DNA of 18,860 nt from a virus (taxonomy: Duplodnaviria > Heunggongvirae > Uroviricota > Caudoviricetes): the IMG/VR virus record IMGVR_UViG_2526164632_000035; one strand, written 5' to 3'. Positions within the stretch are counted from its first letter, which is position 1, and every line of letters begins with the position of its first letter. This document shows positions 8,633-18,860 of the stretch, in pieces. The translations under genes were made by a program, and so were the position numbers. Below the pieces are notes generated by a model that worked only from the letters and a program-made list of their open reading frames with translations, ran no database searches and was not told the DNA's origin.

Positions 8633-9077
8633 ATCTCACACCTCCGGAAATCCCCGCTGAAGCCATCATTAATGCGACATCATCCTCGCTGACATCCGCC
8701 ACATCCGCAGACGATAAAATCTCACGCCCTCCGTCCCCACCAAACCGGACGCCTCCGGCAAGTCCTGCCGCTTTCTGCATCAGCATTTTTTCCTCATCCG
8801 GCATCTCCGTCTGCGCTTCCTCACGCCGGGGGGCAAGCAGACTGAAATCAGAGGGATGCATATCCGGATCGCAAAAAAACAGGCTGAGTACGGCGTACGT
8901 CAGCCCGGAAAAATGCATATCCAGTTGGGTATCGAGAAAATAATGCGTACGGTAAAAATGTCGCCAGTCGGCATATTCGGTGGATGTCATCCCGGCAAGC
9001 ATGGCGCGCCAGTCAGGCCTCCCCATCTCACGCGCCAGTCTGAGGGCAAAATTCAGCTCGCCGTCGAAGACTTTCCC
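8613..9077 (-). CDS. T: T-frame segment of the tail assembly chaperone GT, reached by programmed -1 frameshift from G
   Basis: The -1 frame is open from the slippery site to the stop at 8613..8615 and encodes …GKVFDGELNFALRLAREMGRPDWRAMLAGMTSTEYADW…, matching lambda gpT as recalled. Confidence 0.8.
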   Translation of the reverse strand, partial: GKVFDGELNFALRLAREMGRPDWRAMLAGMTSTEYADWRHFYRTHYFLDTQLDMHFSGLTYAVLSLFFCDPDMHPSDFSLLAPRREEAQTEMPDEEKMLMQKAAGLAGGVRFGGDGGREILSSADVADVSEDDVALMMASAGISGGVRYVPAGW

Positions 9078-11970: not shown

Positions 11971-12998
11971 TTATTTCACCTGTACCACCACAAACTCATC
12001 CGGGTCCGGCAACACCATCAGCGGCGCAGACTGCGTCATGGTAAATTCACGGGCGGGATCCCCCACCGTCAGCCAGTGTTTCGGATAACGGGAAGAGGCC
12101 ACCACACCTTCGGACAACGCCTGCGCATCCTGAATGGCACCGTAACAACGGATCCCATCTGCAGCAGTATTCCCCAGAACCAGCATGCCCTCCGGCAGAT
12201 AACGTTTTTCGATACCGTCTTCTGCTATATAAGACGTTTTCGCCACCACAATGGCCAGATCGCCGTAATACCCCTTGAAGGACACCACTGCGCCCAGATC
12301 TTTCACTGCCGTTTCGAGTTGAGAATTTGAACCGCGACGGGTATCCAGTTTTTCGCGGAACAGCTTAAAACCATTCAGAAGACGCCAGACGGTACCGTCC
12401 ATAATGGCAATATTCACAAGACCGCTGGCCTGGTCGCAGTAGAGGTCAAGATCATGTGTAGGATCGAACGTGTCACGATCCTGTTTTGACCACTCCTTAC
12501 CACTACCCTGAGTGATGTTATTCTTCGTCGACCTGCCAAAATCGACCTCAATTTTCTCGAACTGGTCTCCTTCCATCGTGTATTTGCCATACAGCACGGC
12601 ATTCACCGCCTGCATTTCTTCCACCTGGACAATGGCGTGCTCTTCCTGTTTGAGGTTATCAGTGATGATACGCAGACGACGGTAGGCCGGGTCGTTCAGC
12701 TGAGCCGGATCTTCACCGGGAAGACGCTCAACCGCCTGCTGGTAATTAAATTCGTGTTTCGGCTTGACGTAGCCCGGACGTAACACGCGGGTTTCACCAC
12801 CACGATGACGCAGCACTTTTCCTTCAACAACCGGGGAGACATAGGCCGCCACCGGCGTTTTCCAGTAATTTTGTCCAGCATCACCTCTTCGGTATGGAAA
12901 TTCACCGTACGGCGGAAAAACAGCTCCAGAAACAGCGCACGAAATTTCACTTTTTGTTCGGTATAACCGAGTAACTGGCGGGTCGTAAACAATCCCAT
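11971..12998 (-). pseudogene. E: Major capsid protein (lambda gpE-like), split by a frameshift at the homopolymer 12858..12861
   Basis: N-terminal frame from ATG 12998 (MGLFTTRQLLGYTEQKVKFRALFLELFFRRTVNFHTEEVMLDKITG) and C-terminal frame (…VAAYVSPVVEGKVLRHRGGE…PGYVKPKHE…VQVEEMQAV…KLDTRRGSNSQLETAVKDLG…GDPAREFTMTQSAPLMVLPDPDEFVVVQVK) both match consecutive parts of lambda gpE but sit in different frames. The junction is at minus-strand ggAAAAcg. Confidence 0.8.
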
Positions 12999-13055
12999 AA
13001 ATCAGTTCCTTTCATTCAGAAATCAGTCAGGCCACCGCGGTGGCCTGATAACGTG

Positions 13056-13403
13056 TTACGGCAGCGCCGCGTGACTCAGGGCACTGCCGGCAAAGGCATT
13101 TGCCTTTTTGTGTTCATCCACACTTTCAGGCCAGCGGATTGCCTCCGTCGCAAAGGTCCCCGACTTGTAATAGGTCAGTACCGTCTCTGTGCCTTCAAGC
13201 GGCAGTACCAGTATGCCAACTGCACTACCGGCTTTCTGTCCGTCCCAGACCACCAGTTTCCCGCTGGCTTCATCCAGCATCAGGGGCGTCAGTGCCGGTG
13301 TTGCCGAGGAAATCCCGCTGCTGCCTGTGGCGGTATGAGCCGGATCATTACCGGCAAAAATACGTACTTCCGCACGCTGTTCAGTGATGGTTTTCGTTAC
13401 CAT
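13056..13403 (-). CDS. D: Head decoration protein (lambda gpD-like)
   Basis: Start at ATG 13403 (MVTKTITEQ…) with AGGAGG 8 nt upstream. NDPAHTATG…TPLMLD…KLV.WDG…AVGIL…TYYKSGTF…WPE…AFAG. Confidence 0.85.
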   Translation of the reverse strand: MVTKTITEQRAEVRIFAGNDPAHTATGSSGISSATPALTPLMLDEASGKLVVWDGQKAGSAVGILVLPLEGTETVLTYYKSGTFATEAIRWPESVDEHKKANAFAGSALSHAALP

Positions 13404-13438
13404 ATTGTAAAACCTCCTGTTGATGATCAGCACTGACT

Positions 13439-14945
13439 TCATGGCATGGCCATGAGCATTTTCACGTCCGCATCACCGTCTGCTGACGTCTGTGGCACGC
13501 CACCCTGTACCGCTGCCGGTGAATGGTTCGCCATGATGCGTTCAAACAGGGCGGTTGTGGATGCAGAGACCGGTTCTGCCTTACCTGATCCCGCAGCCAG
13601 CACAGCCCGGGCGCTCTCCACAGTCATTCCCGGGCAGGCAGCCAGCTGTTCAGCCTGCGCCTCAGCCCCTTTTGCCTCATCCAGTGCCATGATCTGATCA
13701 CGGAGTGAGGGTCCGGCATCCGCCTGCGGTGAAGCAGCCAGGATCGGGCGGGCTTTTTCCACCGTCATCTCCGGCATCGCCGCCAGCGTTGCCGCCAGTT
13801 GTTCACGACCGTTCGCTTCTTCACACGCCATAATGCGATCGGCTTCACTCTGCGTGGATGCCACCGGCTGCTGCGGTGCCGCCGCGGCCAGAATCGCCCG
13901 GGCCTGTTCAACGCTCATGCCCTGTTGTCCTGCCAGCATCGTGGCAAGCTGTTCACGTCCTTTCGCTTCCTGGCATGTCAGGATCCCCATCACTCGCTGG
14001 TTCTCCTGCGCGGCGGCTTCCGTTGCAGTTAATTGCGGCATAGTGCCTCCTCTGACATTACTGTTCAGCGCCGTGGCCATCACACTGATGGCATCCGACG
14101 CATTGACTAATTCATCCGCCAGCCCGGCATCAATGCCGGACTGACCTTCAAAAACGGCGGCCTCTGTTCCCGTGACGGCATCAACAGACAGACCGGTAAA
14201 CATGGCCACTTTTTCGGCAAACATCCGGCGCGCCGCATCAATGCGCTGCTGCATGTCCTGGCGAACCTCTGCCGGTAAGGCTTCAAACTGATTGCCATCC
14301 ACCTTGTGCGCCCCTGAGTAAATCAGCGTGATATCCACACCGGCCTGCGCCAGATGACCGGCATAGCTGACATGGCTCATCATCACGCCAATGGAGCCGA
14401 TACGGGATGTCTGGGTAACCAGCCGTCGGGAGCAGGCCGATGCCAGCAGCATGGCTGCAGAACAGGCCGTGTCATTGCACAGTGCCCAGACCGGCTTCTG
14501 CTGACGGAGGCGGTAAATCATGTCAGCGCAGTCAAACGCGCCGGCGGCCTGCCCGCCCGGACTGTCAATGTCCAGCAGTACGCCCCGCACCTGGCTATCC
14601 GCCATTGCCTGCTGAAGACAGGCGACAATGCCGTCATAGCCAGTCATTCCGGAAAATGGCCGCATCCCCCCCAGCCGGTGCACCAGCGTGCCGGTCACCG
14701 GCAGTACCGCAATACCGTTCACCACCCGGTAAACACGGGCCGGTCGTTTACCTCCGGCCATGTACTCGTCCGTTTCAGCCAGCATTCCGGGAGCATCAAG
14801 CTGTACCTGCTGCTTGTGGTACCGAAAGACTTGCTGCCCCCATCTCGCGCCCGAGCGCGCAAAAGAAAACCCGCGCATAGGCGGGCTCCAGAAGCAGCGG
14901 TTCATTGAATGCTGCGGCAATAATGTGTGAAAGATTACGTCTCAC
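13439..14945 (-). pseudogene. C: Head maturation protease and scaffold (lambda gpC/Nu3-like), with a frameshift near 14796..14825
   Basis: The true N-terminus is in another frame: GTG at 14943..14945 with AGGAGA 9 nt upstream gives VRRNLSHIIAAAFNEPLLLEPAYARVFFCALGREMGAASLSVPQAAGTA*, matching the lambda gpC N-terminus, with a stop at 14796..14798. The rest (…GKRPARVYRVVNGIAVLPVTGTLV…GMTGYDGI…LLDIDSPGG…KPVWALCND…LVTQTSRIGSIGVMM…) is in the track ORF frame 13439..14920. Confidence 0.75.
13537..13996 (-). repeat. Three tandem, diverged copies of an approximately 150-bp unit encoding an approximately 50-aa motif in the Nu3/scaffold part of C
   Basis: Protein copies: RVMGILTCQEAKGREQLATMLAGQQGMSVEQARAILAAA…; RIMACEEANGREQLAATLAAMPEMTVEKARPILAAS…; QIMALDEAKGAEAQAEQLAACPGMTVESARAVLAAG…; followed by a partial RIMANH…. 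Lambda as recalled has one copy. Confidence 0.7.
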
Positions 14946-16528
14946 GTGGTGTTGTCTCCTCTTCCGGCCTGCGACTCTCCGCTATCTGCTGCTGATACGC
15001 CTGCGCTATCCACACCGGACGTGAGAGTCCGGCTTTTTCCCGCTCTGCAGATTCCCTGACCTGCTGGCGGAAAATGTCCTGATAATCCTCGCCCATCAGC
15101 GCCAGCTCTTTCTCATACGTGCTCAGTCCGGCCTCAATGCGCATCACTGATTCCTGAACCTCCTTGAGCCCGTCAATGGCCATTCTTCCGGCTCCAATCC
15201 ACTCAGCCCGTGACCAGGCTGATCGCGCCTGATAAAAATCAAAACGTGCCCGTGGCGGACGAATAATCCCCCGAAGAAGTGCCTCTTCCAGCCAGCAGGA
15301 AAACATCTGCGTGGCCAGCCGGGACGCAATAAATTTTCGCCGCCCCATAAAATAGCGCCACGACTCATTGGCGGATGCGCGGGCACTTGAATAACTGACC
15401 TTCGAGTAATCACGGGACAACTGTTCGTAGGAAACGCCAAGACCGGCGGCGATATACCGCAGCAGCGCCTGTTCAAGCGCCGAAAATCCATTGTCTGAAT
15501 CCTGCGCGGTCTGAAGTTTCAGATCATCACCGGGGAAAAGGTGCGGAATTTTGACACCGCCCAGCGTCACGCTATTCGTGTCATACCAGGTGGAGAACTT
15601 ATCCAGAATATTAATAAGCGGATTATCCTTCTGCCCCTGCGGCGCACCGGCGATATATTCAAAGGCCTTTTCGGTATCAAGGTCACTTTCAATCGTCGCT
15701 GCATACATCGCCTTCACTATGGCCGACTGAAGCTGTGTTGCCTGCAGGGAATCGAGCATCTTCAGCCGTTCCATTACGCTGTAAAACTGATTGGCCCCAC
15801 GGGTCTGCCCGTCCTCCACCGGCTCGAAAATATGCAGCATGGCCGGACGCCCGGTGGGAAGTTCACGCGGGATCCGTTCCCATCGTCCACTCCCAGAGAA
15901 CGGAAAATCATCCTCACAGATATGGTACGCAACGGCACGACCATATCGATCGACCTCCACACCGGCCCGCAGAAAACGGTTCCCCATACCGTGTCCTGGC
16001 GTGTCCACCCGTTTCGGACTCACGGCTTTAAAACGCGTACGAAACAGTTGCGTGCTCTCCGTATCCCAGACCGGCTGCACAAAGATTTTCGCCGTTAAAC
16101 GCATGAACGCCCACACCTTCACGAATAAATTCCGTAAACGTGCGTTTCTCTTCCACGTCGATCTCGCCAGACATCCCTTCGGCGTATTCCGACCAGGCCG
16201 CCTCCACCTCATCGACAAAACTTTTTGCCGCAGTCTCCCGCATCCCCAGCCAGCGCCAGTTCGGACGGTAGCTGATCAGAAACATATGCCCGACAATATG
16301 ATCCTTATGCAGGGCCACCGCATTGGCCGCTATCCCGTTATTGCGCACCAGATCATCTGCCCGGGCATTCCCCAGACGCAACGCAGGCAGCAGGGCTGCA
16401 TCGGCACTCTGCGCCGGTGGCAACCACTCCGCCATTTGCCCGCCAAATCCTGCACCGCCACCGTTGTAGCTGAGGCTCTCCCGAAGCGGAACGCCGTTCA
16501 CATCAATCAGGACAGGCGTTCGTTTCAT
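14935..16528 (-). pseudogene. B: Portal protein (lambda gpB-like), split by a frameshift at the homopolymer 16086..16089
   Basis: N-terminal frame from ATG 16528 (MKRTPVLIDVNGVPL…GGGAGFGGQ…NARADDLVRNNGIAANAVALHKDHIVG…HAFNGEN) stops at 16028. C-terminal frame (…IFVQPVWDTESTQLFRTRFKAVSPKR…FEPVEDGQTRGAN.FYSVME…QSAIVKAMYAATIES…GLGVSYEQLSR…) runs to the stop at 14935. Both match lambda gpB. The junction is at minus-strand gAAAAtc. Confidence 0.8.
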
Positions 16529-16731
16529 AACCTCACTCCCAGCGGACGACGGCGACGTCGGGTTGTCCCCAGTACCGACTCCGCATCATTGATCGCCCGG
16601 TTAAGCTCATCCAGAGAAGCCGCCGTATATTCAATTCTGCGACCATCTTTCTGGACAGACACCACCCGTTTACCGGTTAATAAATCAAGGCGCGCCTGAC
16701 GCAGCGCCTGCAGTTCAGCGACTGTAACCAT
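16525..16731 (-). CDS. W: Head-tail connector protein (lambda gpW-like)
   Basis: 68 aa, same length as lambda gpW (…LTGKRVVSVQKDGRRIEYTAASLDEL…RRRR). Stop overlaps the B start (ATGA). Start overlaps the A 3' end. Confidence 0.85.
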   Translation of the reverse strand: MVTVAELQALRQARLDLLTGKRVVSVQKDGRRIEYTAASLDELNRAINDAESVLGTTRRRRRPLGVRL

Positions 16732-18643
16732 TCACTCCTCCGGACAGCTTCGCTGCCAGTTCTTTCAGGGTTGGCCGGGTCGTCTCTTCTTCCCGGGATT
16801 TTGCCAGTACAGCCAGATCAAGCTGCCAGCGTTGCACGGACACACGTAATGCCGCGTAGGCATACACCAGGCAGTCCAGCGCTTCGTTACGCCGCTTTTT
16901 GTTATCCCACAGCAGACGCATCTTTCCTTTTTCCCACTTCTCCACCAGCTCTTCCGCCACCAGTTGCTGCGCCTCTGTCTGCGAAAAAATCTCCGGATCA
17001 TCAGGAAAACGGATGGCATACGACGTGGCTTCATCCGCAGGCGTGGGATCGGCTTTCATACGGGCATAGAGAATTTCTTTTGCGGTGTCCGTCCCCACTT
17101 CGCACAGATACACGCCCCGCTGATTGCGGGTTTTTGGCATGGTGATCACCGGCTTGCCATAAACAGATGCACCTTTTACCGGCAGCACCCGGAAAACACC
17201 GTGTTTTTTTGACCTCTGATAGACAATTTCGCCATCGATCCCCCCGGTGTCCCAGCAGACACGGGAAATGGTCATTTCGGTTCCGTCTGCATGGCGGTAT
17301 TTTTTGTTGATCGCCACATCCACACGTAACAGCGTCTCTTCCTCATCGGGACGCCCCATAATGATGATTTTATCCACCAGAAAGGCTTCCTCTCCCGGAG
17401 CCCATCCCCAGACATACATCTCAAAACGGTTTCGCTGCGAGTCAATGCCCGCCGTCAGATAAACCACCCGGGAAGGCACCGCAGCCGTGTAACGCACAAC
17501 CTTATCCATCAGCACCTGGTGATCGAGTTTTTCGCCCACGGCCTCTTCCCAGGTCTCGCCCAGCGTGGTGTTCACAAAGGTTTTCAGGCCGTTGGGATCT
17601 TTCAGTGCATCCAGCCAGTCATAGACAATCTGTACCCAGGTGGTGAACGGACTGTACGCCGTCCAGATATGAAATGTGATGGAGCGCGGCGGCGGAATTT
17701 CATTATCCGCGGCGCTGAAAAACGTCAGACCGTCGCGGGTCCACATGCCCGTGTTTTCGCAGATCCACCGCCCGTTGCTCTGGTCAAGCTCAGACTGATG
17801 GATCACGCAGCCATGATGTTCACAGAGGTAGAAAACGCTTTCGGGGCTGTCCTTCTCCCATTTAAGGCCAAAAGGCGTGGACTCATCGCCAAATTTCAGA
17901 TACTGCGCCTCCCCACAGTGCGGGCAGGACACATAAAAACGCATGAAATGCGCCGACTCGTTGGCCGCTTTTTCGATCTGGCAGGAGCCTTTTATTTTAG
18001 GCGTCGAGCCGCGAATGGATTTTGGCCATACCGAGCCCTCAATACGCTTATCCCCCAGCAGGGTTGGCGAGCCCTCTTTTTCGACATCCGGCTCGAACGA
18101 GGAAAGTTCGTCATAGCAGACCACGTCCACGGATTTTTCACGGTAGTTTTTTGCTGCCGCACCACCCAGGCACCAGAAGCCCACCCCCGATGAAAAGCGT
18201 TTCAGCGTGAGAGTATTGTCACGATGTTTACGACCCAGCCACGGGGAAAGATCTTTCAGGCATGGCACGTCCCGAATCGTCGCCTCCACGTGAGACTTCA
18301 TAAAATCTTCAGCGGCAGAATCCGTGGGCTGAAAAAGCAGACTGTTTCGGGATTTATGCTCAATAAAATACCCGGCGACTCCCAGCAACATCTTTGTATA
18401 GCCAACACGGGCAGATTTAATCAGATTAACAGTGCGGATCTGATCATTCCCCATACTGTTCATGATGGCGATCTGGAACGGCAGCGTTTTCCATTCGCCG
18501 TCACCGTATGAGGATTCTTTCGGCAGATAATAATACTGGTCAGCCCATTCAACTGCCGTCATCGGTACAACCCTGACCAGAGGCTGCAGCGCAACCGAAA
18601 CGGCGGCCACCATATTATTCAGTTGTTGCTCTGATATATTCAT
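16715..18643 (-). CDS. A: Terminase large subunit (lambda gpA-like)
   Basis: Start chosen at the internal ATG 18641..18643 (MNISEQQLNN…), aligning with lambda MNIS…; about 643 codons. Similarity throughout (TAVEWAD.YYYLPKES, KSARVGY.KMLLGV, KRFSSGVGFWCLGGAAAKNYREKSVDV, GDKRIEGSVWPKSIRGSTPK, HFMRFYVSCPHCGE.QYLKFGD, FHIWTAYSPFTTWVQIV, LTAGIDSQ, CWDTGGID, KGASVYGKPV, WDNKKRRNEALDC). Confidence 0.92.
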   Translation of the reverse strand: MNISEQQLNNMVAAVSVALQPLVRVVPMTAVEWADQYYYLPKESSYGDGEWKTLPFQIAIMNSMGNDQIRTVNLIKSARVGYTKMLLGVAGYFIEHKSRNSLLFQPTDSAAEDFMKSHVEATIRDVPCLKDLSPWLGRKHRDNTLTLKRFSSGVGFWCLGGAAAKNYREKSVDVVCYDELSSFEPDVEKEGSPTLLGDKRIEGSVWPKSIRGSTPKIKGSCQIEKAANESAHFMRFYVSCPHCGEAQYLKFGDESTPFGLKWEKDSPESVFYLCEHHGCVIHQSELDQSNGRWICENTGMWTRDGLTFFSAADNEIPPPRSITFHIWTAYSPFTTWVQIVYDWLDALKDPNGLKTFVNTTLGETWEEAVGEKLDHQVLMDKVVRYTAAVPSRVVYLTAGIDSQRNRFEMYVWGWAPGEEAFLVDKIIIMGRPDEEETLLRVDVAINKKYRHADGTEMTISRVCWDTGGIDGEIVYQRSKKHGVFRVLPVKGASVYGKPVITMPKTRNQRGVYLCEVGTDTAKEILYARMKADPTPADEATSYAIRFPDDPEIFSQTEAQQLVAEELVEKWEKGKMRLLWDNKKRRNEALDCLVYAYAALRVSVQRWQLDLAVLAKSREEETTRPTLKELAAKLSGGVNGYSR

Positions 18644-18860
18644 CGAGTAAATCCGGTAATTTATCCCCTGCCCGCGCACACTGATTTGCCCCCTTCGCAA
18701 TAAGGGTTTTCAGATGGTCAAGATGGCGCGGTGTTAAATCAGGAAACTGTCGCTGCATGGATAAAGGGATGGAATCAAGCGTACTGGATAACGCCATTGC
18801 CAGCTTACTGAGGGCAAAAATACAGAACCCGGTGTCAATAAGTTTTCCTTTGACTACCTC
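18615..18860 (-). CDS. nu1: Terminase small subunit (lambda Nu1-like), 3' part only; the gene continues beyond the right edge
   Basis: The minus-strand frame is open from the window edge (…EVVKGKLIDTGFCIFALSKLAMALSSTLDSIPLSMQRQFPDLTPRHLDHLKTLIAKGANQCARAGDKLPDLLDEYIRATTE*) and matches the lambda Nu1 C-terminal third. Its 3' end overlaps the A start by 29 nt. Confidence 0.8.
   Translation of the reverse strand, partial: EVVKGKLIDTGFCIFALSKLAMALSSTLDSIPLSMQRQFPDLTPRHLDHLKTLIAKGANQCARAGDKLPDLLDEYIRATTE

Follow-up and report, generated by a model that had tools for sequence, protein, structure and literature searches.

How does the capsid gene of a lambdoid prophage come to be deposited in two reading frames: as a lesion in the bacterial DNA, as a recoding signal, or as a fault of the assembly? 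The question arises at gene E in the window, by which we mean the whole stretch of 18,860 nt analysed here. On the minus strand, E occupies its usual place in a lambda-type head module, with the decoration gene D on one side and FI on the other, and one continuous open reading frame of ~340 codons is absent from the sequence as deposited. Instead, a first open reading frame (12998-12696, 100 aa) starts with MGLFTT (MGLFTTRQLLGYTEQKVKF), runs through LDKITGK, after which it is out of frame up to a stop at 12696, and a second (12852-11971, 293 aa, GTG start) reads MAAYVSPVVEGK... up to the normal C-terminus of E. With the intact 342-aa E of the closest relative as query, tblastn returned two HSPs, both at 100% identity, one covering residues 1-47 in frame -1 (12998-12858) and the other residues 47-342 in frame -3 (12861-11974). 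Pfam family PF03864 (Phage_cap_E) matches the first piece over profile positions 1-54 with 24 bits (cut-off 22.9) and the second over positions 46-329 with 181.5 bits; combined, the two pieces cover the whole profile length, which the intact relative matches over positions 1-329 with 216 bits.

The frames meet at GGAAAACG, within the minus-strand stretch 12870-12850 (AATTACTGGAAAACGCCGGTG), and the run of four A occupies exactly 12858-12861. Relatives carry ACCGGAAAAACG at this site, with five A, and encode a protein with ...LDKITGKTPVAAYVSP... in one 342-aa open reading frame. The earlier note on this DNA, made from the sequence alone, had called the gene a homologue of gpE, broken by a change of -1 nt in the A run, and had held that a fifth A would restore a continuous protein. 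The Pfam matches and the identity to the 342-aa protein bear out the first point, the sequence and the two-frame tblastn result the second, and relatives with five A read exactly as the restored protein was written. The alignment to intact homologues that the note had proposed as a check agrees: all of them have A5 and a single open reading frame, the window alone has A4, and no single-frame solution exists at the site in the sequence as given. The sizes of the pieces need amending, since the junction follows codon 47 and not codon 45, and the figure of 293 is the length of the open reading frame counted from an internal GTG, while the second frame holds 295-296 codons of E. The coordinates of the features are collected in the table.

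Table. Features of the capsid gene, of the other altered head genes and of the prophage end carrying the insertion sequence, in window coordinates.
Feature	Position	Strand	Evidence
E, N-terminal frame, codons 1-47	12858..12998	-	tblastn 100% to WP_000522628.1 residues 1-47; PF03864 positions 1-54
E, frameshift site, A4 versus A5 in all relatives	12858..12861	-	sequence comparison
Private C>T, synonymous, ACC>ACT, Thr45, 3 nt upstream of the deletion	12864	-	comparison with relatives
E, C-terminal frame, codons 47-342 and stop; GenBank EHX32459.1 (293 aa)	11971..12861	-	tblastn, PF03864
T5>T4 in the Shine-Dalgarno (GGAGG)-to-ATG spacer of head-decoration gene D	13409..13412	-	relatives T5
S49 protease/scaffold gene (14945-13439) split by 'AG' insertion	14813..14814	-	12A copy A has A, copy B has G
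Portal gene B (16528-14935) split by A3>A4	16086..16089	-	comparison with relatives
IS679 (IS66 family; tnpA, tnpB, tnpC), ends GTAAGCG; abuts truncated tail gene I	1234..3937	+	
Truncated tail-assembly gene I beside IS679	3828-4382		

The products specific to the frameshifts (the 293-aa E, 166-aa portal and 49-aa protease pieces) each occur on exactly one contig among ~15 billion proteins. This contig is AIHC01000061.1 (75,063 bp) from the 2012 draft assembly of E. coli DEC12C (O111:H2 group; GCA_000250255.2), and GenBank annotates the split products as EHX32459.1 (capsid, 293 aa), EHX32464.1 (portal, 166 aa) and EHX32462.1 (49 aa). The contig breaks off inside terS, and the window is its final 18,860 nt. 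Among complete genomes, the nearest are E. coli O111:H2 strain 12A, at 99.4% across the entire window, and FDAARGOS_1059; both carry the same prophage in the same gene order with everything from terS to I intact, E included. An inactivating E allele common to related strains or independent assemblies was not found, with 12A and FDAARGOS_1059 intact and the 293-aa product confined to its one contig.

The rarity of the allele extends well beyond these two genomes. A search of 5,426 complete E. coli genomes with the 76-nt E site yielded 1,863 matching records, none of which carries the A4 allele; the best identity was 97.4%, equivalent to a gap plus a C/T mismatch, which leaves no place among those 1,863 records for either private change, the A4 or the T at 12864. 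Thirty records sampled evenly along the identity ranking are all 77 nt long across the site, and the diverse E. coli variants sampled all read ACCGGAAAAACG. The exact A4 pattern, with C or T permitted at 12864, had no match in the three large collections scanned for it, of genomes, metagenomes and viral contigs. The A5 pattern had at least 120 matches in each of the two collections scanned for it, viral and metagenome, and at least 240 in total; among the 240 A5 matches listed, all have ACC followed by A5 and none has ACT. Judged by these searches, the A4 and the C>T at 12864 are private to the DEC12C assembly. The E change, set in a mononucleotide run and peculiar to one assembly, thus has what would be looked for in an artefact.

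E is not the only gene on the contig to differ in this way. Compared over 28.9 kb with the closest complete genome, that of O111:H2 strain 12A, the contig has six private one-base indels in its body and two more in its last 20 nt, versus ~6 substitutions left unexplained by the paralogous copy. Three of the body indels lie in the head region beside that of E (Table); relative to 12A, the four fall at 16089, 14813, 13413 and, in E, 12862. At the portal site, none of 152 related loci has A4: 151 read GGCGAAAT and the remaining one reads GGTGAAAT, which is A3 too. At the protease site, the 9-nt form occurs in none of 141 related loci, and both 8-nt alleles are present and common. The spacer upstream of D is one T longer (T5) in all 10 of the related loci that match the flanks. 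In the 10-kb flank beyond the window there are no substitutions relative to 12A and two homopolymer deletions, both just outside the window: a T8>T7 change that truncates NleF to 119 aa, and, in hprR, which encodes a core response regulator, an A7>A6 change at the 3' end that takes HprR from 223 to 253 aa. An IS3-family element lies between hiuH and hprR in DEC12C and is absent there in 12A. The rate of change grows with the length of the run, with 1/1 runs of 8 altered, 1/6 of 7, 0/22 of 6 and 2/114 of 5. The excess of similar indels relative to substitutions, with hits in hprR and nleF, and the stacked allele described below are again what an artefact would leave behind.

Some of these variants recur in other assemblies. 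The 253-aa HprR variant (A7>A6) is also found in EHV72541, EHV73787 and EHW90710, which, to judge from accession ranges, belong to the same sequencing project's accession block as EHX32459, and the nleF T8>T7 product is also found in DEC11C. The recurrence of the hprR and nleF changes in these assemblies suggests a site-specific platform error.

The head region is, moreover, a mosaic of two prophage copies. The two 12A prophages concerned lie at 1.918 and 2.155 Mb, and positions 13450-18860 of the window, the terminase-portal-protease region, find their best match in the second prophage at 1.918 Mb and not in the syntenic one. In a three-way alignment the tracts are long and alternate: the window goes with copy B over 18840-16454, then with copy A over 15775-14642 apart from a two-site B patch, returns to copy B over 14462-13591 and stays with copy A from 13450 on. 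This B/A/B/A pattern reflects either real recombination between prophages or a chimeric contig. No more than six differences in the alignment set the window apart from both copies: four indels and the substitutions at 12864 and 15895. The T at 15895 is a common natural allele, present at 67 loci. Each of the four indels falls inside the 3.3 kb of highest similarity between the copies; the E site itself lies inside a 320-nt stretch (12803-13124) that is identical in copies A and B. The 9 kb of tail genes from Z to K have 100% protein identity to 12A and no indel. At 14813-14814 the window holds the alleles of both copies, A and G, next to each other, and by this comparison the protease 'AG' is demonstrably a stacked-allele consensus artefact, in which reads of the two copies would have been merged and their alternative bases set in neighbouring columns. 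The earlier note, which stands as far as the broken gpE in the A run is concerned, had not noticed this context, that is, the other private indels, an allele found nowhere else and the two-copy mosaic.

In our view E was most likely split by an error in the draft assembly of DEC12C and not in the bacterium itself, with a probability of about 65% on the sequence comparisons made here. The frameshift appears to be a property of this draft because the contig carries other private indels, because the allele occurs in no other genome or metagenome searched and because the head region is a two-copy mosaic with at least one stacked-allele 'frameshift'; we infer that the E change arose as the other private indels did. 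The DEC genomes were reportedly made largely by pyrosequencing (454), and pyrosequencing miscounts homopolymers. A run of five A would have been under-called as four where reads from at least two near-identical lambdoid prophages overlie one another and are partly collapsed, and the real genome would have E as a normal single 342-aa open reading frame, as in every relative. The reads of the E site are accordingly expected to show five A. Several observations sit less easily with an assembly error. Five A is short for a homopolymer error at the consensus level. The C>T at 12864 is atypical of a homopolymer miscall, and among viral contigs and sampled E. coli variants no paralogue form was found that would explain it by stacking. 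The T8 and A7 runs are natural slippage hot spots too, and the nleF variant also occurs in O145:H28 drafts of another laboratory. Finally, the prophage is already defective, and real frameshifts in head genes no longer under selection would be no surprise.

More specific origins for the private changes were considered and rejected. If a paralogue with ACT GGB AAA ACG had been mixed with ACC GGA AAA ACG, allele stacking could have produced both the C>T and the lost A of E, but no such variant occurs in the viral contigs or in the sampled E. coli. The corresponding paralogue for the portal (GGCAAAATC) had no match, and all 152 related loci have A3. A shared CCGG>CTGG signature of 5-methylcytosine deamination at 12864 and 15895 was discarded in view of the 67 loci at which the T at 15895 is a natural polymorphism.

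The assembly-error reading has one substantial rival, in which a real, recent and private 1-bp deletion, with the neighbouring C>T, has pseudogenised E in a non-productive, unselected prophage that carries effector genes. We regard it as possible, though doubtful. It draws on the state of the prophage, which lacks gene J and the tail fibres, and in which IS679 adjoins or interrupts gene I, in DEC12C as well as in 12A. In 12A and FDAARGOS_1059, IS679 is followed by remnants of tail-fibre genes and then by nleB2 (internal stop), nleC (partial), nleH (frameshifted) and nleF, and nleB2, nleC and nleH are annotated pseudogenes in 12A. Because J and the fibres are missing, the prophage is defective in DEC12C, 12A and FDAARGOS_1059 whatever the head genes do. 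DEC12C also shows lineage-specific structural changes of other kinds, namely the IS3-family insertion upstream of hprR and the loss of 354 bp adjoining IS679 that are present in 12A, which in this comparison is an IS-adjacent deletion. The adjacent C>T, too, looks more like mutation than like a miscall. Against a real deletion, the A4 allele is in no other genome searched, and indels are about as frequent as substitutions on the contig, far above the ratio expected of natural divergence. The indels reach the core gene hprR, are nearly all changes of homopolymer length and cluster where the paralogues are most similar, and one neighbouring 'frameshift' is a stacked-allele artefact.

The minus-strand interval 1-732 of the window holds the C-terminal 243 codons of NleB2, a type III effector arginine glycosyltransferase (Pfam SseK_NleB, E = 4e-137), and the window starts exactly at the nleB2 stop codon.

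Functional recoding, in which E would be made through a -1 slip of tRNA-Lys on GGA-AAA-C to give ...GKTPV..., or use of the run as a phase-variable on/off switch, is very improbable and was rejected for want of conservation, length polymorphism and structure. The geometry does fit: the downstream frame is -1, and a Lys-tRNA in the P site that slipped from 12860-12858 to 12861-12859 would keep perfect pairing and yield the wild-type protein. The split frame, however, is not conserved, with no instance in the 1,863 E. coli records and no A4 match versus at least 240 A5 matches. The site has no slippery heptamer of the form X XXY YYZ (it reads T GGA AAA, in the zero frame ACT GGA AAA CGC) and offers only a single-tRNA slip from AAA to AAA. 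The downstream RNA is no more structured than shuffled sequence (MFE -21.1 kcal/mol; mean of the shuffles -22.7 kcal/mol; z = 0.57). None of the marks of a programmed -1 site (conserved split frame, heptamer, stimulatory structure) is therefore present at E. Phase-variable homopolymers usually comprise 7 nt or more and show length polymorphism in the population. The run of 4-5 nt at E is far below the length for phase variation or transcriptional slippage and shows no length polymorphism, all other sequences having exactly five, so it does not qualify as a contingency homopolymer. If the A4 allele is real, spontaneous slippage could still give traces of full-length gpE. It is less probable still, and we give it almost no credence, that A4 is real and that tRNA-Lys, slipping spontaneously by -1 on GGA-AAA-C, still provides DEC12C with small amounts of wild-type gpE. 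In that case a domesticated prophage would hold a leaky capsid gene, and nothing suggests that the prophage has slippage at E in use.

The split of E is either not a real feature or an ordinary lesion in a dead prophage. Should the deletion be real, it would add an ordinary further lesion to a prophage already out of function, with no J, no tail fibres and IS679 in place, and the knowledge of lambdoid capsid genes is unchanged whether the frameshift is artefact or real. The practical lesson is one of caution, as the broken capsid, portal and protease genes of this prophage are not to be taken for evidence of decay or of recoding without confirmation at the level of reads.

Among known systems, the nearest to the window gene are lambda gpE and the PF03864 proteins of EPEC/EHEC lambdoid prophages, such as WP_000522628.1 of O111:H2 strain 12A, and the two window pieces match successive parts of that 342-aa protein at 100% identity. 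The window and those prophages have the gene order terS-terL-W-portal-protease-D-E-FI-FII-Z-U-V-G-T-H-M-L-K-I in common. Relative to the 12A gene, the window E lacks one A (A4, not A5) and has the synonymous C>T 3 nt upstream, and so has no single open reading frame. A further known system is the programmed -1 frameshift of lambda gpG/gpGT, which resembles the E site in that E would need a -1 shift too. There, a conserved heptamer G GGA AAG serves, and in the window this canonical -1 heptamer is intact in G/T at 9071-9077 on the minus strand, five codons before the stop of the tail chaperone gene G, and leads into T; the E site, in contrast, is without heptamer, conservation or stimulatory structure.

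The errors of early next-generation draft assemblies, in homopolymers and collapsed repeats, offer another likeness. The contig shares with them private indels that lie nearly all in mononucleotide runs and rise in frequency with run length, as well as the involvement of conserved genes, recurrence in assemblies of the same project, a stacked-allele insertion and a contig end in a repeat. It differs from typical homopolymer errors in that the E run is short (5 nt) and has a substitution alongside; the likeness is drawn from the assembled sequence.

Attaching-effacing E. coli retain defective lambdoid prophages of the Sp/CP-933 type, which carry type III effector genes. The prophage studied here resembles these prophages in its IS insertion, in the loss of J and the fibres, and in a cargo of nleB2, nleC, nleH and nleF near the tail region. 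In the complete genomes that share it, 12A and FDAARGOS_1059, the head genes are nevertheless all intact, and the head frameshifts are confined to the DEC12C draft.
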